A stretch of 64,000 nt of DNA from a virus (Duplodnaviria > Heunggongvirae > Uroviricota > Caudoviricetes), in IMG/VR virus record IMGVR_UViG_3300028832_000119, positions 8,924 to 72,923 of that record; one strand, 5' to 3'. The notes beneath the pieces were generated by a model that was not told the origin of the DNA, did no database searches, and saw only the letters and a list, made by a program, of their open reading frames with translations. The position numbers and the translations under genes were made by a program. How positions within the stretch are numbered: position 1 is the stretch's first letter; every line of letters starts with the position of its first letter. Positions 5,733 to 55,585 of this stretch are shown in pieces.

Positions 5733-6398
5733 TTATAGTACCTTCTTGATAAAAGGGATTCCGTTTAAACTACCTCCCTTACGATGCATTTTAAATTGAG
5801 CAATAACAGAACCTTCTTGGTGTTTCTTTATTTTAGAACCACATTTATTTTTTCCAATTCCTTTATTATCTTTTAAAGCTTGGTCTGTTTGGGTTTTAGC
5901 TTTTGGTCCAGAATTTTCTTGTCCTTTCTGAATATCTTTTCCAACTACTATTTGTCCTTTTCTCCATTTATCTTCTCTCTTTTTCTTTTCTTCCTCAGCT
6001 TTTTTTCTATTTTTATTAGCTTCAGCAAGTTGCATCATTTTATTTCCATATTGCATTTTAAATTTGGCAACTGCAGAACCTCCACAATCTTTTTTTACTT
6101 GACCGCCATCTTCTTTCTTCTTGCAGCCACAACCAACAGAACCGCCTTTCTTATAATAAACTACTTCTTCATCTTCAGCACATTGATTCTTCAAAGATTT
6201 GAAGTAATTTAATTTAGCACCATGAGCGGCTTTTTGAGCTTGTGCTTTAGAAGCTTGGGCCTTTTCTTTTTGGTATTCAGCATAATATTTTTTTACTTCA
6301 TCCTAATTCTTTGGGCTATATTTCTTAGCTTCTAGCCATTTCTTAAAATTTGCTAATTCCTTCTATTCTTCTGGAGAAAGTTTTTTGTTATTATCCAT
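5733..6398 (-). CDS. Lys/Glu-rich hypothetical protein, ~221 aa, 2 in-frame TAG
   Basis: ATG 6396-6398 (MDNNKKLSPEE-TAG-KELANFKK...) continues into ORF 5733..6194 and ends at TAA 5733-5735. Confidence 0.45.
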
Positions 6399-6400
6399 AA

Positions 6401-6619
6401 TTAATCGACTAAGATTAAATCTTTTGTAGAGAATACTGCTTCTTGTAAAAAGCCGTTCTCTGTAAACCATCTTACCTTTACTCCTTTAAGTAAGGCATTT
6501 TTATCGTCACTTCTAATTATAGAGCGTTCAACTCTATATACCAACATAATAGGTTTATTTGGTATGTCCTGGCGAAGGGTTACCTTCTAGCCAGGAACAA
6601 AATAAATCTTTTCATCCAT
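6401..6619 (-). CDS. small hypothetical protein (72 aa, one in-frame TAG)
   Basis: ATG 6617-6619 (MDEKIYFVPG-TAG-KVTLRQ...) to TAA 6401-6403. Not in the ORF track because of the TAG. Confidence 0.35.
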
Positions 6620-8587: not shown

Positions 8588-9199
8588 TTACTTAGAATTA
8601 TCTTTTATATACTATAAAATTCCTTCAACGTGAAGTCTTACAATAGCATGAAAGCCTTCATCACTGAGTAAATAATCTACATCTTTTTTATTATCCTAAA
8701 AAAAGTTTTCCGTTAGTACCGCAGGACAATTAGTATTTTTAAGAACATATAAATGAGCTTCTTTATCTGGATCTCCATCCGAAAAATCAGTTCTCATTTT
8801 AGCGTCCTTTAGATTTGTTTTTGCTGCATTATATAAACAGGTTGCAAGCTCATCAGCTTTAGTTTTACCAACTGATGTAAAAACTTCCCAACCTGTTCCC
8901 TCATGCCATTTACCGTCAGAACCGGAGGCATTTACATGTATAGAAACATAAATACAGTTTTTGTACTGTTTTACTAATTCATTAACAACTTTACATCTTA
9001 AACATAATTCTTTTGATTGAGATACTCCTAAGTCATCATCTTCTACATCAATAAAGACTTTATATCCCATATCTTTAAGAATCGCTGCAGCAGCTTTACA
9101 AACTTCTCTAGAATATTTATATTCTCTAAATTTTCCATCTGGAGAACCTTTTCCTAAGATGCTTTTCTAATGAGCTGTGCCAAAAACAACTGTAATCAT
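8588..9199 (-). CDS. N-acetylmuramoyl-L-alanine amidase (Amidase_3) endolysin; 3 in-frame TAG
   Basis: Core ORF 8696..9070 has SIHVNA and NCPAVLTENFF motifs. Reading through TAG 8696 gives the canonical Amidase_3 C-terminus (DNKKDVDYLLSDEGFHAIVRLHVEGIL-TAG-YIKDNSK) ending at TAA 8588. N-terminus MITVVFGTAH-TAG-KSILGKGSPDGK starts at ATG 9197-9199, which overlaps the upstream TGA (ATGA). Confidence 0.65.
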
Positions 9200-9870
9200 T
9201 TCTTATTGTTATAATCTAATAGTAAAGCTAACTTCTAAATATGTGGTAAAACTTTTCCTGTATAAATGTATCCATATTTCTTAGGAGCTTTATACAACAA
9301 AACAATCATTCCTATTTGTGAATCAGTACCTTCAATAGTAAAGAAAGTAACAGATTCTGCATCACTTGCTTTTACAAGTCGATATAATTTTGGAAGGCTT
9401 GTTTTCATTTCCTCAATATCTAGAAATTTCACATAACTTTGATTATGGATTTTAAATAATTCATCTGCATAATAAATATAATCTAATTTATTCCACTACT
9501 ATCTTAAAGTAGGAACATCTACTGATCTTGGAGCTTCCGTGAGACAAGATAAATACAAATATTTATAACCTTGCAAACTTTGAGTATTATTATGATAATT
9601 CAAAAGTAATACATCAAAAGCATCCTTATCTATTTCTGCTATTGCTTGGATTTGACGGTTTATTTCAACGGCGGTTTCTTTAGAGTACTATTCTGCCTTT
9701 TTATTGGCAATAATTTCCTATTCGAACTTTTGTTGAATCTGATGACCAGTTTCTCCAATTATCTGAGAATATAAAATCCATCCAAATAGAAAAATAATAA
9801 TTACATTTCTAGTTTCAGGCTTAATTTTATTTAATATTCCCCACAAATACTTAATCCAATTTAAATTCAT
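9196..9870 (-). CDS. membrane protein directly upstream of endolysin (holin-like?); 5 in-frame TAG
   Basis: ATG 9868-9870 (MNLNWIKYLWGILNKIKPETRNVIIIFLFGWILYSQII = N-terminal TM helix). Same frame continues through TAGs into ORF 9235..9432 and ends at TGA 9196-9198. Confidence 0.4.
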
Positions 9871-9999
9871 CTTTTTGTTTGTTATAAAATAAAAATATTT
9901 GTATTTATCCAAATGTATTAGTATATTTAGTAATGTCAAAATAATTAATATTCGTTTCGTTAAAGAAATTAAATTTAAGCTTAAAAAATATTTTAGATT

Positions 10000-11361
10000 A
10001 TGAACAACGTTGTTAAAAATTTTAAAAAAGGACACAAAATTCGAATCAAGGAGTCTCAAAAAGGTTCTTTTACTAAATGGTGTGGAGGGGATGTCACAAA
10101 TGAATGTATTTAGAGGGGAAAGAATAGTCCTAACCCTAAGATAAGAAAAAAGGCAACTTTTGCTGCAAATGCTAGAAAGTGGAAACATTAGGAAGGAGGA
10201 AGTATTGAAAGATTTAAGAATCCTTCTGGACCTATCACTGCTAAATAGAAAGCAAGAGCCAACTTAACTAAAAGAAAAACTCCTGATTGGGATAATTTAG
10301 ATAGAGGTTATAGATATTTGACTTAGGATATGAAACTTCCTCATGATTAGGCTATTGCATTAATGGGTAATGTTGTTGAAGAAAGTCAAGGAAATTATAA
10401 GGCTGCTCAAAAGAATGGAAGAGGTAGAGGACTCATTCAATGGGATGGAAGACCTGCTCCTGAAGGTAGATATGGACAATGGGGAAGTATTTGGGCTTCT
10501 GTTGCCAAGAAAGCTAATGTTTACGATCCAGATACTGATACAGTTAAAAATTATTGGGCCCCTTGGAATGGGTTAAAAGGAGAATAGGTTAGACAAAAGT
10601 TTATATCTGCTCCTTTAAAATAGAAAGCTAGAATATATGCTGAATCATACCTTCGTCCTGGAAAACCTAGAATTGCTGATAGACAATTAAGTGCTATGCA
10701 ATTAGATTCTATTTATAATCCTAAAATAAAAAATATTGTAGTACAATAGAAAGTGGGAGGTAAAATAGATTTTCTTAGTTTAGGAGGAAATTTCTCTAAT
10801 ATTCTAAAAAATGTAGGTTCTTGGGCATAGGATAATAAAGATTTAATTAATGGAGTTGGTGGAGCCCTTGTTTCTGGAATAGGTTTATTTAAAAATTCTA
10901 GTGCTTCTGCAGATTTTCGTGATTCAGATAATAAGAGAATCCAAGAAGGCTATAATGCAATAGTTAATGATCTTGGCGATGGAATTGATGAAGAAGTAAA
11001 CTCTCTTATTGCACAAATGAAAGAACAAAATCCAGATTAGAATTTTGGAGAGATTGATTATTAGATGTTACGATAGAAAGTGGAACAATAGCGTAGATAG
11101 AAAAATATGTAGAAAGCTGATATGTATAAATAGTAGGAACTTGAAAAACAAGGAAAAGTTTTAAGTTCTATGGAAGAATCTAATACATCTTTATTAGGAG
11201 GACTTCTAAGTAAATTAGGAGGAATTGGTACTGATGTTTTAAATAGTAAATCTGCTTCTGCAACTAAAGGAACAGCTACAGGTTCTACTGTTGGAACTGG
11301 AGAAACGACTACTTATGTTGGAAGTAATGGAAGTTTAAAATTAAATAACATGTTAGCATAA
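10000..11361 (+). CDS. SLT-domain lytic transglycosylase (virion or lysis peptidoglycan hydrolase); TAG-recoded; C-terminal extent uncertain
   Basis: Frame from ATG 10000 includes ORFs 10363..10587 and 11170..11361 with only TAG interruptions. SLT motif EESQGNYKAAQKNGRGRGLIQW (E-S...G-L-I-Q). TAG density rises sharply at 11040-11170, so the true end could be earlier. Confidence 0.45.
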
Positions 11362-11371
11362 CACAAAGAAA

Positions 11372-11405
11372 CCCCGATAGGATTAATTTCCTACCGGGGT
11401 TTTTA
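11372..11405 (+). terminator. rho-independent terminator-like hairpin
   Basis: aaccccgatagg...cctaccgggg stem followed by TTTTT. Confidence 0.4.
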
Positions 11406-11574
11406 CTCAAGTACAAGTATGAAAAAGAATTATCTATCAATATCGATTGATAGTTTATTAAGTTCATCTTTCCAATGAAGGTAATAACCATTATCTAACA
11501 TATTATGGTCTATAGATAATTGTTCTATTGCCTTAATCTCGTCTATATTTGCTTGATATAAATCTCTAAAAATT

Positions 11575-11994
11575 TCAGTTCTCATAATACAATGTCATTA
11601 AATATTCTTCTGTTATTTCTTTAATTCCAGTTTTAGTAGTTGGGTTCCATATATGATTCTTAAAGAGTTCTCTCATTGTAGGACGAGGTTCATCTTTTTT
11701 AATAAAGCATACTCTTCTAGTATCATCTATGTTCGAACGAACTATTACTTTTGTTACATCTTTCATATAATCCTCTAGCTCATTGCTAGGGGATTTTTCT
11801 TTTTTAATAGGATTATCTATAATTTCTATATCATCTATAGATAATTTCATCCTTTTTAATTTCTTCTCCAGATTTGGAGTAGTGATTATTGTTCCTTTAT
11901 ATTTAAATGTTGTTTCCATAGTTGTCCCACTAGGATTCGAACCCAGGCTAAAGGATTTAGAGTCCCCTGTACTGACCATTATACTATAGGACAA
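11575..11994 (-). CDS. hypothetical protein (139 aa)
   Basis: Intact ORF, standard code. Confidence 0.45.
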   Translation of the reverse strand: MSYSIMVSTGDSKSFSLGSNPSGTTMETTFKYKGTIITTPNLEKKLKRMKLSIDDIEIIDNPIKKEKSPSNELEDYMKDVTKVIVRSNIDDTRRVCFIKKDEPRPTMRELFKNHIWNPTTKTGIKEITEEYLMTLYYEN

Positions 11995-28995: not shown

Positions 28996-29109
28996 GGCGG
29001 AGTAGTTAAACGGAAAATGAGTATCTGTTTAGTTACTTACAATATCGTATTTATTAACGCAAATTTGTCACATTTGAAAATAGGGGTTCGACTCCCCTCT
29101 CCGCCGCCA
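28996..29109 (+). tRNA. tRNA-Asp-like (GTC) with ~40-nt insertion in the D-loop; CCA encoded
   Basis: GGCGGAG...CTCCGCC-G-CCA acceptor, D-stem GTTA/TAAC enclosing AACGG + insertion (contains TTACTTACAA), canonical CAAAT-TTGTCAC-ATTTG anticodon arm, AGGGG-TTCGACT-CCCCT T-arm. Confidence 0.45.
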
Positions 29110-29457: not shown

Positions 29458-29581
29458 GCCCAGGTAACTTAGTAATAAATTTTTTAGTAGCTAAAGTTAC
29501 TTACAATATCATAATTAAATTTTCGGTAAAAGTATTTGTCTGTTAAACAAAGTATCGCTGGTTCGAGTCCAGCCCTGGGCG
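29458..29581 (+). tRNA. tRNA-Asn (GTT) with ~45-nt D-loop insertion carrying AGTAGCTAAAGTTACTTACAA
   Basis: GCCCAGG/CCTGGGC acceptor, D-stem ACTT/AAGT around the insertion, TTTGT-CTGTTAA-ACAAA anticodon arm, GCTGG-TTCGAGT-CCAGC T-arm. Confidence 0.45.
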
Positions 29582-30002: not shown

Positions 30003-30079
30003 GAAGGGTTCGTCCAGTGGTAAGACTGCAGTTATGGTTATGTCAGCTGTAGAACAGGGGTTCGATTCCTCTACCCTTC
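30003..30079 (+). tRNA. tRNA-like gene with enlarged (15-nt) anticodon-region loop; isotype undetermined
   Basis: GAAGGGT/ACCCTTC acceptor, GGGG-TTCGATT-CCTCT T-arm, TGCAG...CTGTA stem around TTATGGTTATGTCAG. Confidence 0.3.
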
Positions 30080-30186
30080 TCAATTATCTATGGAACTTGA
30101 CGAAATAGGGGTCGCGCAGGAAGCAGCTTATAAATCATGACCCGCTGCTAAGATCAATAAAGTAGATAATTTGTCCGACGGGACAG

Positions 30187-30971: not shown

Positions 30972-33044
30972 ATGACATTAACAACTATTATTGTTGCAGG
31001 AGTAATTGTTCTCCTAGTGATTTTAACAATTATCGGGCTTTTGTCTCGTTATCGTAGATGTCCCAGTGATAAACTGTTAGTTGTATTTGGTCGAAATAAG
31101 ACCAAAACAGTTGAGGAAACCTACAAAGATGTAGATGGTAAAGAGAAAACTCGTAAAGTAACTCTTCATCTCCCTGCTAAGATTATTCAAGGTGGTGGTA
31201 CATTTGTATGGCCTATTGTCCAGGATTATCGTGAGATGTCTCTCAGACCTATTCTTCTTAGTAAGAAGATTGAGGGTGTATCATCTCAGATGATTAAGAC
31301 CTTTGTATCAATTGAATTGTCAGTAGCTATTGGTAATGAAGAAGAGCTTCGTATGAATGCAGCTTCTCGTTTCTTGAGTGCTAATGAGAGTGAAATTAAG
31401 AACTCTATTGAGGCTATCTATGTAGGTGAGGTAAGATCTCTGATGGCTCGTATGACCATTGAGGAACTGAACTCTGATAGAGAGGCATTCTTGACTGATG
31501 CTAAGAGAAATATTGAAATTGAGCTGCAAAAGGTTGGTTTCGTTATTCTTAACATTAACATTTCAGACCTGGATGATGATGCAGATTATATCACCAACTT
31601 AGGTCAGAAAGCTGCTACTCAGGCTAAGGCAACAGCTGAGGCTGATATTGCTGAGCAGGAGAAGATTGGAGAGGTTAAGATTGCGAATACTCGTAAGGAG
31701 AAATCTATCCAGTTAGCAGAAGCACAGAAAGAAGAGGAAATCCAGGTAGCTGCACAGAATAAAGATCGAGAGACTACTGTTGCTCAAACTAAACAGGAAC
31801 AAGAAGTTCGTGTTGCAGAGATTGAGAAAGAAAAGCAGACTAAGATTGCTGATACTCAGAAGGCTAAGGAAGTACAGCTTGCTGAGATTAAGAAGGATAA
31901 GGAATCTGGTATTGCTAGTCAGAAGGCTCTTGAGATTGCTGCTGTGGCAGAGGCTGATGCAAATGCTGAATCAAGTAAGGCTGAAGCTGAAGCACGTAAG
32001 GTTGCTGCAGTTGCTGCTCAGAAAGCAAAGGCAGAGTCTTCTAAGGCAGAATCTGAGTCTAATCAGCGTAAGGCTGTAGCTGCTGCACAGGCAGATGCAG
32101 AGGCAACTGAGAATGAGAAGGAAGCTCTTAAGCAGACTCGTATTGCTCAAGCTAATCAGAAGAAGGAAGCTGATATTATCCAGGCTACTCAGGAGAAGGA
32201 AGCTAAACAGGCTGAGTTCGAATCACAAAAGCAGATTCGTAAGGCTAAGGCTGACCAGGATGCTGGTGTAGCAGAACAGAATGCAAAGATTCTCGTAGCC
32301 CAGGCTCGTGCAAAGGCTGGTCAAGCAGAAGCTGATGCTGATAAGACTGTAAAGGTTGCTAAGATTGAAGCTGACATGAAGGCAGCTAAGACCCAACAGG
32401 AACGTCAGTTAGAGGTAAATGAGGCTGAGGCATTGGCAGTTGAAGCTAAGTTGAATGCTGAGCAGGTTGTACCTGCTGAGCAGGCTAAGAGAAAGACCAT
32501 CATCGAAGCAGAAGCTATTAAGGAACAGGCTATTCTTCAGGCAGAAGCGGAAAAGCAACGTATTCTTAAGAAGGCTGAAGCTGATGCAGAACAGGTTCGT
32601 CTAAAGATGAATGCTGAAGCTGAAGGTATTAAGAATAAGAAGCTTGCTGAGGCTGAAGGTCAGAAGGCTCTGTTGTTTGCAGAAGCAGAGGCTCTCCAGA
32701 AGAGAGAGATGGCTCCTGCACTGGCTCTGCAGAAGATGGTAGAATCATTCGGCGGTAACCCTGATCTTCTTGTTCAGTACAAGATGGTTGATCAGTATAA
32801 GGGCATTGCTGAGGCTCAGGCTCATGTACTTGAACATATTCAGCTTGGTAATGTTACTGTTTATGGTGACTCCAACACTGGTGCTCAAGTTGCTAAGAGT
32901 TTCGTTGAGAACTTCTCACCTGCTCTGGATATTATCAACAAAGGATTTGGTAAGCAATTTGGACAGCTCTTTAATAAAGAGAAGAAAGAAGAGTTGCCAG
33001 CTCCTGAAGAGAAAAAGGATGAAACTTTTGAGGAAGTAAAGTAA
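30972..33044 (+). CDS. flotillin-like SPFH/band-7 protein with long Ala/Glu-rich coiled-coil repeats (690 aa)
   Basis: N-terminal membrane anchor, SPFH-like region, then an extended EA-repeat coiled coil (KAEAEARKVAAVAAQKAKAE...), as in bacterial FloT/YqiK. GC-richer, host-like codon usage. Confidence 0.6.
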   Translation: MTLTTIIVAGVIVLLVILTIIGLLSRYRRCPSDKLLVVFGRNKTKTVEETYKDVDGKEKTRKVTLHLPAKIIQGGGTFVWPIVQDYREMSLRPILLSKKIEGVSSQMIKTFVSIELSVAIGNEEELRMNAASRFLSANESEIKNSIEAIYVGEVRSLMARMTIEELNSDREAFLTDAKRNIEIELQKVGFVILNINISDLDDDADYITNLGQKAATQAKATAEADIAEQEKIGEVKIANTRKEKSIQLAEAQKEEEIQVAAQNKDRETTVAQTKQEQEVRVAEIEKEKQTKIADTQKAKEVQLAEIKKDKESGIASQKALEIAAVAEADANAESSKAEAEARKVAAVAAQKAKAESSKAESESNQRKAVAAAQADAEATENEKEALKQTRIAQANQKKEADIIQATQEKEAKQAEFESQKQIRKAKADQDAGVAEQNAKILVAQARAKAGQAEADADKTVKVAKIEADMKAAKTQQERQLEVNEAEALAVEAKLNAEQVVPAEQAKRKTIIEAEAIKEQAILQAEAEKQRILKKAEADAEQVRLKMNAEAEGIKNKKLAEAEGQKALLFAEAEALQKREMAPALALQKMVESFGGNPDLLVQYKMVDQYKGIAEAQAHVLEHIQLGNVTVYGDSNTGAQVAKSFVENFSPALDIINKGFGKQFGQLFNKEKKEELPAPEEKKDETFEEVK

Positions 33045-36727: not shown

Positions 36728-37393
36728 CCTATCTTTAATGCATAGATATAAAACAGCATTAGTGGTACTATTCCTTCTCAAAGTTAATAGCGTAAGTTAA
36801 TGTCTTTTACGATAGTAAAGCATCGATTTTCTCCTTAAAGTTAGAAAGTGAGACGTTTGGTTTTGTTAGTTTTACAGCGTGAAGTAAAAACTAATAGGAT
36901 TATCGGAACGATAGGTCGCTCCTATGGGTAGATAATTAACAATAATGGAGTTTGGCAGATTCCATTATTAATTGGGCCTTACAGGATTAGACGGCTGTTG
37001 AAGGTAATAAGAACAAGCAAAGACGGATGGAAAGACATCAAATAATTAAATGGCAATAAAGCTAAAACTGTAACCATCGGTAGCAGAAGCTTCCGTATGG
37101 CTGCCTAAGTTGGTAACTTACTTAGTCGTCAGAAAGTTACAATAATAGAAATTATTAAACTTAAGTCATTAAACAAGGGAGCCTTGGTCCTTCTAATTGA
37201 CTGATTAGTAAATTATAGGCTGGTGGAACTGATGACTATCCAGTCATCCCCTTGGAGAAGAATAACTCCTTAAAAAATTGAAAAGCTTGTATAATTCTTA
37301 TAGAATAAGCAGTTCGGACGAGGTTTCGACTACCTCAAGGTCCACTTTATTACGTTATTTATTAACGAGATACTTTACAAAATCATATTTTAT

Positions 37394-44373: not shown

Positions 44374-45099
44374 ATGAAAGATTTTGAAAAAATTCCTGCA
44401 GAATGTTGTTATTATGTAAGAAGTAATCCTGGATTTCAATTTCTTGAAGGAAATAGAGATCCTATTAATCCCCATATAAGAGAAATTGCAAGGGCATTAA
44501 AGAAACATGAACATATTCCTGCTATTATGGTAGCAAGATATGAAGGGGAACTTTATATTGTAGATGGACAACATCGGTATCTTGCAGCATGTTCTTTATG
44601 GGATGAGGGTGAACCATATAAACTTCTTGTAGAAGAATATGATTCAGTTAATCCTTTTATGGATGCCATTAAATTCAATAACACAGCAATGGATTGGGAT
44701 ATGTCTACTTATCTAAGAGCTTTTGCTGCATGGAATTATCCTAATTTTAGAGAATTTTTAGAATGGATTAGTTCTAAAGAATGGAATCGTGATAAACTTC
44801 CATATACTTTAGGATTGGCTATGTTAGGGGTTAGAGGAAGAGATAAAATTAAACAAGGAGTACTTCAATTAGGTTCTTCTTTTAGAGAAGGGGATCGTCT
44901 TTATAATGAAATTAAAAACAGTTCTTGTTTTAATATTGTTCTCACAAATGAAGCCTCTGTAAAAGCTTTCTATAGGTTATATAATGGAAGTACTATAGGA
45001 CTCCATAGATTTATTGAAAGTTTTGAGGATAGAGAACATATCTATCCTCCAACAACTTCTAAAATTAAGGATTGGGTAGAATTTTTTGAAACTGTCTAA
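44374..45099 (+). CDS. ParB-like nuclease / DUF262-family protein (DGQHR motif)
   Basis: YIVDGQHRYLAA matches the ParB N-terminal/DUF262 signature. 241 aa. Confidence 0.5.
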   Translation: MKDFEKIPAECCYYVRSNPGFQFLEGNRDPINPHIREIARALKKHEHIPAIMVARYEGELYIVDGQHRYLAACSLWDEGEPYKLLVEEYDSVNPFMDAIKFNNTAMDWDMSTYLRAFAAWNYPNFREFLEWISSKEWNRDKLPYTLGLAMLGVRGRDKIKQGVLQLGSSFREGDRLYNEIKNSSCFNIVLTNEASVKAFYRLYNGSTIGLHRFIESFEDREHIYPPTTSKIKDWVEFFETV

Positions 45100-45107
45100 T
45101 ATTAGAT

Positions 45108-45278
45108 CAGGTTGTGTCCGACCAACCTTCTGAGGCGGTACGATTGGGTCAGCCGAAGCTAAGTTATCAGTAAACCGATCGGTGATTGGGGCAACCCTTA
45201 ACAAAATTGGGAAGAGTCAAAGGCATGACTGGAAATTATGCACAAGATTTGAGTGAGAGACTACCTCTCACTTATTTT
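45108..45278 (+). ncRNA. GC-rich structured noncoding segment ending in a rho-independent terminator
   Basis: ~55% GC island (aggttgtgtccgaccaacct hairpin etc.) in an AT-rich genome. Terminator gtgagagactacctctcac + TTATTTTT at 45252-45278. Confidence 0.3.
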
Positions 45279-45654
45279 TAAAACTTAATAATATGAAACT
45301 AAGAGTATTAAAAAAGAAGCATCCATCTAAATTAGAAAGGATATGGATTGAACACTATTTAGTATGGAAATCCTTAAAATGGTTAAATGAGGATTATCAA
45401 TCAATAAGACTTTATTATATGGAGTCTTGTAAAAAACATATTGGACTATGATAATAGATTTTAGTAAATATGATTGCTTTATAGCAGAATGTTATGAAGC
45501 AGAAGATGAATTTTGGAAAGGAATTTATGAAGATATTGAGTCTGATTATTGGATAAATGAAAATAAAAATAATTTTTGATTTTTTAACAACTATTAATAG
45601 TATTAACTGTTAATAGTAGATAGTTCAATTTTTTAACGTTAAAAATCAAAATTT

Positions 45655-47979
45655 ATGAATAAATTAGTTTCTAAAAACCCTATTTAGAGGTTTAAAGAGG
45701 GTAGAAAAATTGAAAAGTTTGAAACCGGAGGTTTTACATATAATGGAAAACATTATGTTGGTGGAGGAACTAAAATTGTTAATTGGCTAAAAAAATAGAT
45801 GATGCCGTTTGGAGCAATTCCTGTAAAATAGCAATCTTAGAAAACAAAAAGAACTGTTTATCCTTTATATAATTCAACTACTGGAGAAACAACTTATTAT
45901 AATTCTTTAGAAGAAAGGGAAGCTGCTAAACAAAATATAATTAATTCAAAAAATAATATTACAATAAATAATTCTGGAGTAATTCCTGGAGTTAATGATA
46001 TTGATACTCAAATGAGAATTAATCAATTACCTTCTGCAAAATTAAAAAAGCCTCTTAAGACTCAAGAATAGTGGAATACAGAGTTTCAAAATAACTTTAT
46101 TAATAATTTAACCCAGGATTAGAGATAGTATTTAGATTCTCAAGGAGTTAATTTTAATGATGTTAAAGCGGTACAAAAATTTATAGGTACCAATGATGAT
46201 GGAAAATGGGGAAGAAATTCTATAAATGCTTGGAATAAATTTATTTCTACAATTCCTTAGAACTTTTCTTAGACAAGAGAAGAACAATCTATGATGCAAG
46301 GAACAACTCCATATGTAGAAACCCCAATAACTCCTACTAAATATACTACAAATAATACTTATATGGATAAAACTCAATTTAGAGACAATATCAGAGGATT
46401 GGGTATTTAGAGTAATGCAGATTTAATTAATTGGATGCATTAGACTGGAGCTGAAGGATATGATTTTGGAGGAAATCAATGGGCTAAACAATTTAGAAAC
46501 GACGTTGATAGAGTTCTTGGAGGAGACTATTCTGATGCTAATATTAGAAAAACATTTAATACTGCTGGAAATTGGGGTAGAGGTTTTTTAGGTGGAGGAG
46601 ATTTAAGTGATTTCCAAAATGCAATGGCAACTAATGCTGGAGTATGGAATGGAATAGCTGATGCTGGAAAGTAGCCTACAATTCAATTTGATCGCTCAGC
46701 TACAAGAGAATGGTTAAGAAATAATGCTGGAGGCTCAGCATATGCATTTACTGGTGATTAGAGAAAAGCAGTAAGAAATATATTAAATGGCTAGGGAACA
46801 GACCAAGATAAAGAATTAATTAAAGGAAATGCTGATTTAGTAAAAGCATTAACAGGTTATTTTAAAACAGGAGGAAATATGATATTACCATCAAGAAATA
46901 TTGTTGAAAGATTTAAACAAGGAAAGAAAATAGAATATTTTTAGAATGGAGGAGTAAAAAGATTTAAAGTAAGTTATAAAACTAGAACTGGAGGAGATTG
47001 GCTTGAAAAATAGTTTAATACTTAGGAAGAAGTAAATGCTTTTAGAAAAAGACTTAGCCATGTTCCAGTTTTTAAAGTTGATGATATGAAAGGAGCTTCT
47101 AGGGGTTCTGTAGTAAAAGCTGATAGAACTAAAGGAAAAGATGCTGCTACAACTGCCTATGATAGATAGGAAGCTGAAAAAAATAACATGATGTCTTTTA
47201 AACAAGCTTATTCTCAAGCTAGAAAATCTGGAAATAAATATTTTGCTTATAAAGGAAAAGTATATAAATCTGATTTAGAAAATGGAAAAGATAATATGAC
47301 TGAAATGCAATAGCTTTATGGAACTCATTTAGGTTATTCATCCAATCCAAAATTACAAAATAAACAATCAAGAACAGCTAGAGAATAGTATAGAAAAGAT
47401 ACTAAAGCTACTAATACTAATAGAAATGCTAATTTCAAGGGAGAAACAAATTCTCAAGCAAATGCTAGGGCTGACAAAAATTTTGATAGAAAATTGGGAG
47501 TAAGTACATTAGCTCCAGATTTTATTGATGCAGTATCTCCTCAAACAGCTATTGGGAACTTTATGAATATGGCAGGCTCTGCTATAACCGGAGAACATTT
47601 TACTCCAAAAATTTATTAGAATGGATTTAATATCCCAGGATATGCTTCAGATTTAACTTAGAGTAAATATAAAGATTTAGCATTTAGAGGATTAGACGCT
47701 TATTTATCTTTGGGAGCTCCTGGTGCTAGAGTAAATATGACTCCTGGAGGTACTAATGTAACTGAAGGTGCTACAATATTACCTAATGGAACAAGAGAAT
47801 TTTCTAAATGGCATTTAAGATCTTTAGGACCTAATGCTACTAGACCTATGGAAGGAGTATTAAGAAGTTCTAGAGGCACTACTTATTATATTGATAATGG
47901 ACAATTTATGAAAAATTTAACTATTCCAGCATTAGTATCTAATCCAATTATTCAATAGATATAGAATTTAGAAAAATAA
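45655..47979 (+). CDS. large TAG-recoded protein (~775 aa, ~30 in-frame TAG) with a peptidoglycan-binding domain; probable virion/tail-associated protein
   Basis: ATG 45655 after an in-frame TAA. Single frame to TAA 47977-47979 with only TAG interruptions (e.g. caa TAG ctt tat gga at 47311). PG_binding_1-like motif VKAVQKFIGTNDDGKWGRNSINAWNKF. The TAA overlaps the next ATG (TAATG). Confidence 0.5.
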
Positions 47980-48206
47980 TGAAATATATTAAAGGAATAA
48001 TCTTATTCTTAACATTATTTATTTGTTGCAGTTGTTCCGATTTACAAGTAACAAATCCTGAGTATAGAATTCATTATACTTATGTAACAACTGTAGATTA
48101 TCATTATAATAGAAGATATATTCCTTATAGACATCATCGATTTCACGATGTTCCAAGGTATAGAACTCACTTGGAACATCGTGAATATCGATTTAACAAA
48201 TATTAA
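47979..48206 (+). CDS. His/Tyr/Arg-rich secreted or lipo-protein (75 aa)
   Basis: Signal-peptide-like MKYIKGIILFLTLFICCSCS. Confidence 0.4.
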   Translation: MKYIKGIILFLTLFICCSCSDLQVTNPEYRIHYTYVTTVDYHYNRRYIPYRHHRFHDVPRYRTHLEHREYRFNKY

Positions 48207-48390: not shown

Positions 48391-48663
48391 ATGAAACCTA
48401 ATGTATTAAAATTTAAAGACGATATTAAAATTCAAGTAGCTCAACAAAAAGAGAAAGATTATTGTGATTGGTGGATGCATCCTGCATATTGTGCTTATTA
48501 CATTTTAAAACATGGAATAACAGACTTTGATAAATGTATTGAAGAAGATGTTAAACGTTCTTATAAAGCATTACCCGATGAATGGAGTAAAGATCACTTT
48601 AGAGAAAAAGTAATGAAATATCTTGCACAATATGAAGAACAACCTGTATGTACTGATAAGTAA
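48391..48663 (+). CDS. hypothetical protein (90 aa)
   Basis: ORF. Confidence 0.45.
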   Translation: MKPNVLKFKDDIKIQVAQQKEKDYCDWWMHPAYCAYYILKHGITDFDKCIEEDVKRSYKALPDEWSKDHFREKVMKYLAQYEEQPVCTDK

Positions 48664-48990: not shown

Positions 48991-49063
48991 GCTCGTATAG
49001 TTCAATTGGCAGAACGGTGGTCCTCAAAACCAAATGTTGAGAGTTCGATCCTCTCTATGAGCA
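48991..49063 (+). tRNA. tRNA-Trp-like with apparent UCA anticodon (candidate opal/UGA-reading suppressor); C at position 33
   Basis: GCTCGTA/TATGAGC acceptor, GTTC-AATTGGCA-GAAC D-arm, TGGT-CCTCAAA-ACCA anticodon stem-loop (anticodon TCA at 49024-49026), ATGTT variable loop, GAGAG-TTCGATC-CTCTC T-arm. The body closely parallels the CCA-anticodon tRNA-Trp at 51545 and E. coli tRNA-Trp, except loop CCTCAAA versus CTCCAAA. Confidence 0.4.
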
Positions 49064-49171
49064 CTAAATAATAAATTGTTAATTTTTATTAAATTCATAA
49101 GTTTGAGTTTGAATTTTCAAACTTAAAAATATATTTATAGTACGAAGATTAAAACCCCTTCGTCTATTAAT

Positions 49172-49759
49172 ATGTCAAAATGGGAATCTGAAAAAGAAGA
49201 ATTAGAAAGACTTATAAATGTAGAAAAAGTTAGTTATGAAGAAATAGGTAGAAGATATGGTTGTTCTGGAACTAATATTAAAAAAGTTGCAAAACAATTA
49301 GGAATAGAACTTCCCCAACGTAGAAAAATAAACCCTTGTGAAACTTTTGATAGAAGTTCTAGAAAAATAATATATTATTGTTTAAATTGTGGAAAAGAAT
49401 TAAATCAAGGTTCTAGTAGTTCTCATAGATTTTGTGATAGTAAATGTCATAATGAATATAAATATAAAGAATTTATAGAAAAATGGAAAAATGGAGAAGA
49501 AAATGGAATTAGAGGAGCTTCTGCAATTTCTATGTATATAAAAAGATATTTATTTAAAAAATTTCATAATAGATGTCAAAAATGTGGTTGGGGAGAGGAA
49601 AATCCCTATTCTCATACTATCCCTTTAGAAATTCATCATATTGATGGAGATTGTACTAACAATAAAGAAGAAAATCTTCAATTGCTTTGTCCAAATTGCC
49701 ATTCATTAACTGATAATTTTAGGTCTTTAAATAAAAATACTACTAGATTTAGATATTAA
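49172..49759 (+). CDS. HNH endonuclease (standard code) inside the tRNA array
   Basis: EIHHIDGDCTNNKEENLQLLCPNCHS HNH motif. Zinc-finger Cys pairs. Confidence 0.6.
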   Translation: MSKWESEKEELERLINVEKVSYEEIGRRYGCSGTNIKKVAKQLGIELPQRRKINPCETFDRSSRKIIYYCLNCGKELNQGSSSSHRFCDSKCHNEYKYKEFIEKWKNGEENGIRGASAISMYIKRYLFKKFHNRCQKCGWGEENPYSHTIPLEIHHIDGDCTNNKEENLQLLCPNCHSLTDNFRSLNKNTTRFRY

Positions 49760-54859: not shown

Positions 54860-55585
54860 ATGTATAGAAAATTTAAAGAACTTACAAAGGAAGAATTAAT
54901 ACAAACTATAGAAGAAGTTGAATATCTTGGATAGGTATTAAAAAACTTAGGTTGTGTAGATAATAGTTATAATAGAAACAAGTTAAAAGAATTTATAGAA
55001 TTAAACAATATTTCTACTTCTCATATTAAAACTAAATTAACTAGAGAAACATATGAATAGAATCCAAAACATTGTAAATGTTGTAATAAAGTAATTCCTT
55101 ATGAAAAAAGAGAAAATGATTTTTGTGATCATTCTTGTGCAGCTAGTTATAATAATCGTGGAATATGTAGAAATGGTACTCCACTTCCAGAACATTCATA
55201 TTGCTTAAATTGTGGTAAAGAAATTACCAGAGGAAATAAATTTTGTGATAATACTTGTGCTGCTAAGTATAGAGAAAAACAATATATTGAACGTTGGAAA
55301 AATGGAGAAGAGGATGGATTAAGTGGTAAATATGGAATAATAACTGCAGTTAGAAATTATATATTTGAAAAGAATAATAATGAATGTGAATGTTGTCATA
55401 AAAATTATATAAATCCTTATACTGGTTTATCTATATTACAAATCCATCATATAGATGGTGATTGTACTAATAATTCTGAAGAAAATTTAAAATTATTATG
55501 TCCAAATTGTCATGCAATGACTGAAAATTATGGTTCTTTAAACAAAGGAAAAGCAACTAGAGTAGATAATAGAATGAGATATTAA
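54860..55585 (+). CDS. HNH endonuclease paralog, TAG-recoded (2 in-frame TAG)
   Basis: ATG 54860 (MYRKFKELTKEEL...EYLG-TAG-VLKNLG...RETYE-TAG-NPKHCKCCNK...ILQIHHIDGDCTNNSEENLKLLCPNCHAM...). Same frame to TAA 55583-55585. Homologous to 49172..49759. Confidence 0.5.

Follow-up and report, generated by a model that had tools for sequence, protein, structure and literature searches.

The segment 45655-47979 (+ strand) of the window, i.e., of the whole 64,000-nucleotide stretch of phage DNA that was analysed, is a functional protein-coding gene requiring TAG as a sense codon. Its 775 codons end with a TAA at 47977-47979, ahead of which the frame is interrupted by 24 TAGs and by neither TAA nor TGA; read with code 15, in which TAG stands for Gln, it specifies a protein of 774 residues. 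The first-pass annotation had described a single frame, open except for TAG, from the ATG at 45655 to the TAA at 47979. This description was correct, and no TAA or TGA had been overlooked; the count of about 30 TAGs given with it was too high. The ATG at 45655 was the first one past the upstream in-frame stop, and the homologues begin in the same way (MNKLVS...).

Evidence for a Read-Through Gene

In each of the remaining five frames of this segment, 39-91 TAA or TGA codons were counted. At the lowest of these off-frame rates, the probability of encountering a frame of 774 codons free of TAA and TGA was about e^-39, and a chance open frame is therefore untenable. A 774-aa protein identical to the predicted product (P0001) was present in public metagenome gene calls, together with about 140 relatives, so that the lack of protein homology which the first-pass annotation had considered damaging was not observed. 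The dN/dS ratios were 0.147 for unit B (defined below) compared with locus L006, 0.175 for unit A compared with L005, and 0.18 for the N-terminus. Purifying selection acts on the read-through frame.

The alignment of orthologues also indicated how TAG is read. Interchanges between TAG and CAA or CAG were seen five times with L006, twice with L005 and seven times with L001, and Gln was the commonest single counterpart of TAG. Twelve of the 19 aligned TAG positions were common to the gene and to L006. Metaproteomics has validated the reading of TAG as Gln in crAss-like phages (Peters et al. 2022, PMC9523058). Both ARAGORN and Rfam detected the suppressor tRNA needed to read the gene, with anticodon CTA, which heads the recoded late block (11921-11993, minus strand). 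As read from the sequence, it resembles the tRNA-Gln(TTG) of the window in its U1-A72 pair and in A73. A decaying pseudogene or chance frame, in which the TAGs would be true stops and translation would yield nothing longer than short peptides, would agree with the output of standard-code ORF finders, which gave only fragments of at most 82 aa. The longest fragment was 47710-47958 (82 aa); the first-pass annotation had remarked that the ORF track shows only the last 82 codons. The number of stops in the other frames, the dN/dS values of 0.15-0.18, the domain order kept across about 140 relatives, the alignment of TAG with Gln codons and the matching suppressor tRNA carried by the phage all speak against such decay, which has next to no probability left and is effectively refuted already.

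Phage Identity and Distribution of TAG Codons

Named crAss-like terminases were 26-29% identical to the TerL of the window, and those of two unannotated gut phage records 45-48%; the portal matched PHROG 6547 (E = 6.5e-44). Judged by these genes, the window is from a crAss-like phage. It is probably zeta-type, an assignment that is tentative and made without phylogeny. The fit with the zeta group lies in the presence of both Sup-CTA and Sup-TCA tRNAs, in the tRNA-rich forward genes and in the reversed structural genes (PMC12386605). The zeta crAss-like phage Lera similarly possesses both suppressor tRNAs, a large tRNA block among forward-strand genes and structural genes on the opposite strand, and in each phage only one suppressor shows visible use; Lera recodes TGA, whereas the window phage recodes TAG (PMC12386605).

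Within a plus-strand region written in the standard code, the gene stands out as an isolated recoded island. Of the 47 plus-strand ORFs with 100 aa or more beyond 13.4 kb, 38 were without TAG, in agreement with the standard code ascribed to the surroundings by the first-pass annotation. The share of TAG among Gln-type codons was 24/51 (47%) in the gene versus 19/302 (6%) in the other plus-strand ORFs (Fisher p = 4e-12). Other late genes of the window were comparable (42% in TerL, 55% in the lysozyme ORF), and a unique bias is therefore not claimed. Recoded genes do exist outside the minus-strand block, as had been proposed: a second heavily recoded plus-strand gene, at 10000-11361, encodes 453 aa with 17 TAGs and a Phage_lysozyme2 domain (PF18013, E = 3.7e-9), and the HNH gene at 54860-55585, also listed earlier as recoded, contained two in-frame TAGs. 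The orthologues were similarly recoded amid neighbours with few or no TAGs at about 14 loci (L001-L009, L010, L011, L013-L015, L021).

Stop-codon-recoded late and lysis genes, with TAG changed to Gln, were reportedly described in crAss-like phages by Yutin and colleagues in 2021, and the recoding phenomenon itself is already published. The published code-15 genes of late and lysis type, from crAss-like phages and other phages of the gut, share with the present gene the decoding of in-frame TAG by a suppressor tRNA(CUA) of the phage, the retention of the standard code in replication-type genes, and the logic by which the recoded protein cannot be made before the code switch. In crAss-like phages the recoded genes form one contiguous unit (Borges et al. 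2021/2022), whereas the present gene stands alone about 34 kb away, amid standard-code genes and with their upstream motif. For other clades, Borges et al. described recoded modules that are scattered, as well as an early gene that contains a recoded homing endonuclease, and the difference is therefore only one of degree.

Architecture of the Protein and Its Family

The 774-aa protein is very basic (108 K+R, 71 D+E), soluble and cysteine-free. With no Cys and a maximum Kyte-Doolittle hydropathy of 0.72 over 19 residues, it showed no transmembrane segment, signal peptide or lipobox. AF2 models were largely helical with disordered linkers. On the evidence of its motifs and relatives, two units, A and B, of a modular family are fused in the protein. 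Members of this family carry the basic peptide LVSRNPVQRFKQGRKI / GGxLPSRNIVERFKQRNFR at each end. The N-terminal copy, LVSKNPIQRFKEGRKIEKF, occupies residues 4-22 (45664..45720; motif HMM, domain E = 1e-11), and, of the 174 proteins collected, 131 were assigned this motif by the family jackhmmer profile. Confidence for the terminal motif was low in the AF2 models. Unit A continues with the degenerate PG_binding_1-like segment described below, and with a conserved all-alpha core domain at residues 216-345 (46300..46689), without structural match in fold searches. Next comes a helical module, module 5 (residues 340-410, 46672..46884; FDRSATREWLR...YAFTGDQRKAVRNILNGQG), recognised by its recurrence in the family: 121 of the 174 proteins contain it together with the following peptide motif, usually as the last module before the C-terminal motif. 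An internal copy of the peptide, NMILPSRNIVERFKQGKKIEYFQNGG, at residues 407-432 (46873..46950; motif HMM, domain E = 8e-11), marks the joint between the units. The unit-A-only proteins P0003 and P0040 end in ...ERFKQRNFR*, and the unit-B-only protein P0039 starts with MNNLVSRNPVQRFKEGRKI. Unit B itself covers residues 433-774 (46951..47976); its AF2 model was of medium quality (pLDDT 63), and neither fold searches nor the PDB profile search returned a match for it. The terminal motif was also looked for in the lysozyme ORF 10000-11361, where the motif HMM gave a non-significant E = 1.5, and in the gene at 5733-6470, where it returned nothing; the motif is claimed for neither.

The cell-wall-binding segment (residues 162-201, 46138..46257) contains the motif DGKWGRNSINAWNKF at residues 181-195. 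Aligned with canonical PG_binding_1 repeats by HHalign, the family profile matched over query residues 162-201 (probability 97%, E = 8e-11), and AF2 predicted the segment to be helical with a pLDDT above 93. Pfam PG_binding_1 (PF01471) was found at E <= 0.01 in 10 of 136 relatives, and the query's own segment failed the Pfam threshold. The peptidoglycan-binding motif of the first-pass annotation was present and agreed with the profile match, and Pfam was silent on the query. Weak PDB profile matches of unit A were to the peptidoglycan-binding domains of 4nso and 7rum (E about 0.5), and the PHROG endolysin matches of family members were confined to the PG_binding_1 module, through which many of them pass Pfam or PHROG thresholds. 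Compared with the PG_binding_1 domain of KZ144-type endolysins (PDB 7rum), the match extends at the profile level over the helix, DGxxG loop, helix core; the query domain differs in being degenerate, below the Pfam cut-off and free of an attached catalytic domain. No catalytic domain (lysozyme, amidase, transglycosylase or peptidase) appeared in the Pfam, PHROG, PDB-profile and fold searches. These features fit a protein predicted to bind the cell wall (peptidoglycan) through a PG_binding_1-type domain.

The collected homologues numbered 38 plus 140, the relatives being about 140 when counted as cluster representatives. A family jackhmmer profile was applied to 174 collected proteins, and IMG/VR yielded matches to a DNA pattern spanning the conserved amber. 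The read-through protein matched no Pfam family at E <= 1 and no PHROG. Among 50,697 GenBank phage records, no deposited genome matched the gene at the DNA or protein level, by tblastn with the full protein or with the core-domain consensus, or by blastn with the locus. An additional search used a segment that is amber-free in the query, because in-frame TAGs would break tblastn matches in recoded relatives. The closest GenBank relative, MT835470 (117 kb), uses the standard code and was devoid of the family when searched with the module HMMs under codes 15 and 4. The motif-bracketed proteins have so far not been described as a family, being absent as such from Pfam, PHROGs and deposited phage genomes.

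Upstream Signals and Timing

The GTAGATARTT motif of the gene, GTAGATAGTT (45616..45625, + strand), located 29 nt upstream of the ATG, was recognised by its copy count, position and conservation. Six exact copies were present in the window versus 0.8 expected, and none of 100 shuffles reached six. All six were on the plus strand and preceded gene or RNA starts by 24-46 nt, among them those of the tmRNA and of standard-code ORFs, and the motif was kept upstream of orthologues in other loci. It is promoter-like by position alone. A sigma-70 promoter scan of the window was uninformative (29 sites versus 27.7 expected), and Rfam at a permissive threshold gave no match in the GC-rich region upstream. 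Between this motif and the start codon lies a perfect palindrome, TTTTAACGTTAAAA (45631..45644, + strand), with a putative function. It was kept upstream of the orthologues in L001, L005, L006, L008, L013, L014, L015 and L021, and replaced by TTAAACGTTTAA in L003, L007 and L009. The sole other palindromic TTAASSTTAA site in the window, TTTAAGCTTAAAA (9975-9984), was found 15 nt upstream of the recoded lysozyme gene 10000-11361.

The first amber is codon 11 (45685-45687), and a TAG was kept in every copy of the N-terminal motif examined. Since the promoter-like motif is common to standard-code neighbours and the codon-11 amber is conserved, timing control of the gene is probably translational. 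As long as the suppressor tRNA has not built up, ribosomes would halt at codon 11, and the protein would hence be confined to the late phase, irrespective of when its mRNA is made. The interpretation offered with the first-pass annotation, in which TAG usage marks a late-expression class at any location, is supported in part.

Possible Functions

The best reading, which we hold with middling confidence, is that of a late, virion-associated, cell-wall-binding protein, acting in ejection or as cargo. Unit B was 43-44% identical (E = 5e-95 and 5e-63) to genes of L020 and L019 located between the w245 homologue and w191/TerL/portal. The packaging block of these two loci was collinear with the late block of the window (56-59% identity for the portal, 44-49% for TerL), and in L019, P0046 and P0176 unit B was fused to a homologue of the window gene 5733-6470. 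Once made, the protein would join the virion as an internal or ejected (cargo) component, and its wall-binding domain would engage peptidoglycan when the phage crosses the envelope of the next cell infected. The terminal peptide LVSRNPVQRFKQGRKI common to the family would serve as a common docking or packaging tag, as well as the joint for swapping, splitting and fusing units; its role as a tag is a conjecture. The internal proteins of phage T4 carry capsid-targeting sequences. These are likewise short conserved terminal peptides borne by otherwise unrelated proteins in one phage lineage, a resemblance only, and they differ from the present peptide, which is found at both termini and at fusion joints. 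The cargo and ejection proteins of podoviruses (crAss001 gp45 and gp46, T7 gp14-16, P22 gp7/16/20; PMC10172136) are large, mostly helical, partly disordered and basic, as is the 774-aa protein, part of which (unit B) similarly has head and packaging genes as its neighbours in related phages; a module that engages the wall would be of use in crossing the periplasm. The differences are the lack of detectable homology, the location of the gene outside the structural block and the fact that its presence in the virion is a prediction. No sequence or fold similarity to known ejection or cargo proteins was seen by tblastn against the 50,697 phage records or in fold searches, and no homology to crAss001 gp45 or gp46, in a tblastn collection assumed to include crAss001 and in fold searches that were empty.

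Further observations count against a cargo role, besides this lack of similarity and the failure of the query's own PG-binding segment at the Pfam threshold. In the window phage the gene is situated outside the structural block, and in L003, L004, L007 and L009 the short-form unit A genes adjoin an Amidase_3 endolysin, which points to lysis instead. The main rival, itself rather unlikely, is accordingly a lysis accessory, a non-catalytic wall-binding partner of the endolysin or lysis apparatus that would be freed to the periplasm through holin lesions, with amber gating blocking premature lysis. At these four loci the short-form orthologues (PG-binding and core) are convergent to a gene of 198-200 aa encoding only a catalytic Amidase_3. 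The PG_binding_1 module is of the endolysin type and is matched by PHROG endolysin families, and lysis genes are the most strongly TAG-biased in crAss-like phages (Borges et al.). Downstream of the L005 locus come a multi-TM protein and a lipoprotein. In the window, a 75-aa lipoprotein-like ORF without TAG (47979..48206, + strand) begins with an ATG that overlaps the TAA of the gene by one base, and such an ORF was kept directly downstream of the close orthologue in L006; we only infer that it may form one functional unit with the gene. The protein nevertheless shows no catalytic, holin or spanin feature (no TM, lipobox or enzyme domain) and, with 774 aa and many modules, is unlike known lysis accessories. 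The phage's own cluster of amidase, TM protein and lysozyme is 36 kb off (8588-11361), unit B occurs in the packaging block of relatives, and the TAG bias of 47% is similar to the 42% of TerL.

An envelope-directed accessory outside both virion and lysis, involved in superinfection exclusion or wall remodelling and encoded in a variable island with lipoprotein genes, seems a good deal less probable. The content between conserved flanks is indeed variable (window, L001, L005, L008, L021), standard-code lipoprotein genes recur beside the locus, and MT835470 lacks the family. Exclusion or takeover is usually needed early, in conflict with the codon-11 amber; the protein is without export signal, and unit B is linked to the packaging block. 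Least probable among the functions considered, and very unlikely, is an external tail part binding or degrading the cell surface. The late-type recoding, the wall-binding module and a hypervariable, modular locus, as often seen with receptor-binding genes, would agree with it, as would the position of the gene in L010, about 1.5 kb from recoded ORFs that are fibre-like when judged by their N-terminal sequences alone. The tail fibre or tail lysin-like matches expected by the first-pass annotation did not materialise, neither a catalytic nor a tail-fibre domain being returned by Pfam, PHROG, PDB-profile or fold searches. Fibre, collar and beta-helix domains and homology to known fibres were likewise absent (Pfam, PHROG, tblastn and fold searches), and the models are helical.

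Returning to the virion-associated reading, zeta crassviruses possess no homologue of the cargo protein gp46 (PMC10172136). We tentatively propose, as a possibility on the unlikely side, that the motif-bracketed proteins may constitute a polymorphic set of ejectosome cargo peculiar to TAG-recoded zeta-like crassviruses. In this proposal LVSRNPVQRFKQGRKI would be both a capsid-loading or docking tag and a recombination joint, the set would fill the gp46 gap, and the codon-11 amber would tie its synthesis to the code switch.

Biological Significance

The gene provides a clean single-gene example of crAss-like amber recoding applied gene by gene, beyond block by block. Probably gated by its ambers and preceded by the upstream motif of ungated neighbours (e.g., the standard-code ORF at 48391-48663), it constitutes a natural test case for the proposal of recoding-timed translation. 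It also reveals an unannotated family of about 140 cluster representatives, whose genes are shredded by standard-code gene callers. This family, present in gut phages that rank among the most abundant, ties a cell-wall-binding domain to one from the packaging block and, if ejected, the motif-bracketed proteins would bear on how crassviruses cross the Bacteroidota envelope.

An Amber-Recoded Gene among Standard-Code Genes

Translation of the plus strand from 45655 to 47979 gave 775 codons with 24 in-frame TAGs, and neither TAA nor TGA before the terminal TAA. The first-pass annotation had described this TAG-interrupted frame correctly, apart from the number of TAGs: its figure of about 30 was an overcount. 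The five other frames of the stretch contain 39–91 TAA or TGA codons, so the open frame is not due to chance. In-frame stops precede the ATG at 45655, and the MNKLVS start is common to the 774-aa product and its homologues. A standard ORF finder returned fragments only, the longest being 82 aa (47710–47958). The identical 774-aa protein (P0001) was already present among public metagenome gene calls. Homologues of the read-through translation numbered 38 in a word-indexed search and 140 when cluster representatives were scanned exhaustively with HMMER.

The Gln-type codons of the gene are 26 CAA, 1 CAG and 24 TAG. At 19 aligned TAG positions, the orthologue at locus L006 showed TAG in 12 cases and CAA in 2; where only L006 had TAG, the window codon was CAA in three of seven. 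TAG/CAA interchange was also seen with the orthologues of L005, L001, L003, L007 and L009. The dN/dS was 0.147 for the C-terminal part (unit B) against L006 and 0.175 for the part before it (unit A) against L005. The suppressor tRNA(CTA) and the window tRNA-Gln(TTG) have the U1-A72 pair and A73 in common, and in crAss-like phages the reading of TAG as Gln was confirmed by metaproteomics (PMC9523058). This stretch is a live gene of modular build, recoded at amber codons, whose product has a degenerate wall-binding domain; it stands isolated among standard-code genes. A pseudogene is effectively excluded.

Beyond 13.4 kb, 38 of the 47 plus-strand ORFs of at least 100 aa lacked TAG, and several of those containing it lie over tRNA genes and are unlikely to be real genes. 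TAG represented 24 of 51 Gln-type codons in the recoded gene versus 19 of 302 in all other ORFs of this set (Fisher p = 4e-12), which bears out the earlier proposal that recoded genes are not confined to the minus-strand block. The orthologues in L001, L003, L005–L009, L010, L011, L013–L015 and L021 have 8–21 TAGs each, and most of their same-strand flanking genes have none. Synteny with the window extends to L001, L008 and L021, all with the same 52-aa ORF upstream; the adjacent 43-aa ORF is also kept in L006 and L021, and related ORFs follow in L001 and L008. Among deposited genomes the closest is MT835470, which uses the standard code and lacks the family.

The 75-aa ORF at 47979–48206 (+), whose ATG shares one base with the TAA that ends the recoded gene, has no TAG and is kept at the same position in L006. 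It shows a lipoprotein-type N-terminus (MKYIKGIILFLTLFICCSC...) and a mature part rich in Tyr, Arg and His. Standard-code lipoprotein genes directly follow the family gene in L005 (3888–5150), L011 (2598–3794), L013 (2309–3565) and L021 (6580–8259); the first three have a ...PTQTWGF... region in common, and that of L021 gave a weak DUF4842 match. A second lipoprotein family (MKKGFILTLLMGL...) was found a few kilobases from the recoded gene in L001, L008, L013, L014 and L015. Two paralogous genes for HNH/zinc-ribbon endonuclease-like proteins are interspersed with the tRNAs, at 49172–49759 (+), with no in-frame TAG, and at 54860–55585 (+), where the recoding previously reported corresponds to two TAGs (codons 25 and 67). 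Related HNH ORFs adjoining the family locus in L003 and L007 have 1–4 TAGs. A GC-rich non-coding stretch at 45105–45275 (+), between an ORF with a ParB-like look (44374–45099) and the small ORFs upstream of the recoded gene, ends with a terminator-like hairpin (45250–45274) and a T-run. It had no match in Rfam even at E <= 1 and may be an unclassified small RNA.

Gene Content of the Phage

The window has a GC content of 32%. Its minus-strand block at 1–13 kb encodes a portal (PHROG 6547, E = 6.5e-44), a TerL with 26–29% identity to named crAss-like terminases and 45–48% to two unannotated gut phage records, a GroES-like protein, a PD-(D/E)XK nuclease and an Amidase_3 endolysin (PHROG 435, E = 2.3e-40), several of these genes having in-frame TAGs. 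ARAGORN and Rfam identified 34–35 tRNAs and also the suppressor tRNA(CTA) at 11921–11993 (-) and an opal-suppressor type tRNA(TCA) at 48991–49064 (+), labeled SeC by ARAGORN, to which the window tRNA-Trp is the most similar. TGA terminates many window ORFs despite this tRNA, and in-frame TGA was not found in the genes examined. A tmRNA (36974–37347, +; Rfam RF00023, 67 bits) lies within the tRNA-rich region. An apparently unused second suppressor tRNA was reported in zeta crAss-like phages (PMC12386605), which the window resembles by its two suppressor tRNAs, one visibly used, and by its forward gene block rich in tRNAs and its structural genes on the opposite strand. On this analogy, the crAss-like phage is tentatively assigned to the zeta type.

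Atypical tRNA-like calls on the plus strand comprise a 111-nt Rfam tRNA match at 28996–29106, possibly intron-containing, a truncated match at 29512–29573 and, at 30003–30081, an ARAGORN call whose anticodon has two bases. The 690-aa protein encoded at 30972–33044 (+) has an N-terminal TM segment and a long region rich in Ala, Glu, Gln and Lys; its Gln codons (41 CAG, 11 CAA) reverse the CAA-dominated usage seen elsewhere in the window, suggesting that it is foreign or that repeats drive the bias.

Upstream Elements and a Possible Translational Gate

The sequence GTAGATARTT occurs in six exact copies in the window (0.8 expected; none of 100 shuffles reached six). All are on the plus strand and precede the start of a gene or RNA by 24–46 nt: at 30162 (tRNA-like gene), 36928 (tmRNA; GTAGATAATT at 36928–36937, 37 nt upstream), 45616 (recoded gene), 48352 (start 48391), 50279 (start about 50321) and 61488 (start 61530). 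This distribution indicates that the recoded gene and its standard-code neighbours have a promoter-like element in common, which is probably a promoter element of plus-strand genes. It matches neither the sigma-70 consensus nor the Bacteroidota consensus TAnnTTTG.

A perfect palindrome, TTTTAACGTTAAAA (45631–45644), is found between this element and the start codon. It is kept upstream of orthologues despite diverged surroundings and replaced by TTAAACGTTTAA in L003, L007 and L009. The sole other palindromic TTAASSTTAA in the window, TTTAAGCTTAAAA, is located 15 nt upstream of a recoded plus-strand gene, the 453-aa Phage_lysozyme2 ORF at 10000–11361 (PF18013, E = 3.7e-9). This ORF, situated inside the minus-strand late block and adjoining the suppressor tRNA, is missed by standard ORF calling; it has 17 in-frame TAGs and 14 CAA codons, and the minus-strand ORFs over it (11006–11491 and the first ~100 codons of 9196–10188) look spurious. 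Codon 11 was TAG in every copy of the N-terminal motif of the family examined. Together, the promoter-like element, the palindrome and this TAG favour control at translation. Ribosomes would terminate after ten residues until the suppressor tRNA is present, and we infer that translation of the recoded gene is gated by it, a mechanism proposed by Borges et al.

A Modular Family Bracketed by Terminal Motifs

The 774-aa protein had no matches in Pfam or PHROG. It is soluble (maximum 19-residue hydropathy 0.72), basic (K+R 108 vs D+E 71), devoid of cysteine and rich in Asn, Gly, Lys and Thr. From iterative profile searches of the homologue collection, five modules were distinguished: an N-terminal motif (residues 4–22), a PG-binding-like segment (about 128–205), an all-alpha core (216–345), module 5 (340–410, followed by an internal motif copy at 407–432) and unit B (433–774). 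None was found elsewhere in the 64-kb window, the recoded gene being the sole carrier.

Most relatives, of about 260–450 aa, start with MNKLVSRNPVQRFKQGRKI and end with ...GGxLPSRNIVERFKQRNFR, with variable content between. Unit A (PG-binding-like segment, core and module 5) stands alone in P0003 (L005) and P0040, and unit B, with its own N-terminal motif, in P0039 (syntenic locus L021). The internal motif of the window protein, …LPSRNIVERFKQ|GKKIEYFQNGG, reads as the beginning of a C-terminal copy followed by the end of an N-terminal one. This hybrid make-up, with each unit also occurring alone, indicates that the 774-aa protein is a fusion of two units. The locus itself has one fused gene in the window and L001, two genes in L008 and L005, and one unit in L021. 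Many synonymous and non-synonymous differences separate the motif copies, which argues for conservation at the peptide level; the motif could possibly be an address tag.

Unit B in Packaging Blocks and the Function of the Protein

A profile search with unit B retrieved proteins on long contigs, including L019 (93 kb) and L020 (175 kb), where the gene lies inside a block collinear with the window late block. The order is PD-(D/E)XK, GroES-like, w245 homologue, unit B, w191 homologue, TerL, w99 homologue and portal (w designating window late-block genes), with identities to the window of 56–59% for the portal and 44–49% for TerL. In L020, unit B (44% identity to query residues 395–767, E = 5e-95) is the gene next to the homologue of w245 (5733–6470, -); in L019, as in P0046 and P0176, the two are fused. 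The w245 product is a 245-aa protein rich in Lys, Gly and Cys, ending ...RKGGSLNGIPFIKKVL. In the fusions (9627–11525 in L019), its homologue stands in front of unit B and the joint is a stretch similar to this end, GGSLNxIPFYQGG (GGTISFFQPGG in L019), which suggests a second linker or terminal peptide in the same modular use. The presence of half of the protein in the head/packaging neighbourhood of related phages is the strongest functional clue.

We consider that there is about an even chance that the product is a virion-associated, ejected or cargo-type protein engaging peptidoglycan. This view draws on the packaging-block linkage of unit B, on the basic, helical and partly disordered character of the protein and its lack of export signals, and on the remark of Bayfield et al. 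that cargo sets vary among crassviruses and that zeta phages have no gp46 homologue (PMC10172136). A lysis accessory is unlikely, in spite of the short-form unit A genes (PG-binding and core, without terminal motifs) that point toward such a role by their convergent orientation with a catalytic-only Amidase_3 gene in L003, L004, L007 and L009; in the window, the amidase belongs to a cluster at 8588–11361 with a TM protein and the Phage_lysozyme2 ORF. An accessory protein directed to the envelope appears more doubtful still, and a tail fibre or lysin would be the least probable.

Earlier publications already covered late and lysis genes recoded at amber codons, suppressor tRNAs and the hypothesis of gating (PMC9523058, PMC12386605 and Borges et al.). 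The present gene joins this known phenomenon, with a protein family for which no counterpart was found in Pfam, PHROG, PDB or GenBank phages. According to Borges et al., the recoded genes of crAss-like phages form one contiguous unit, scattered recoded modules being found in other clades only, whereas in the window a single recoded gene lies apart from the recoded block, at a distance of about 34 kb. Its position is therefore a modest extension of the known arrangement.
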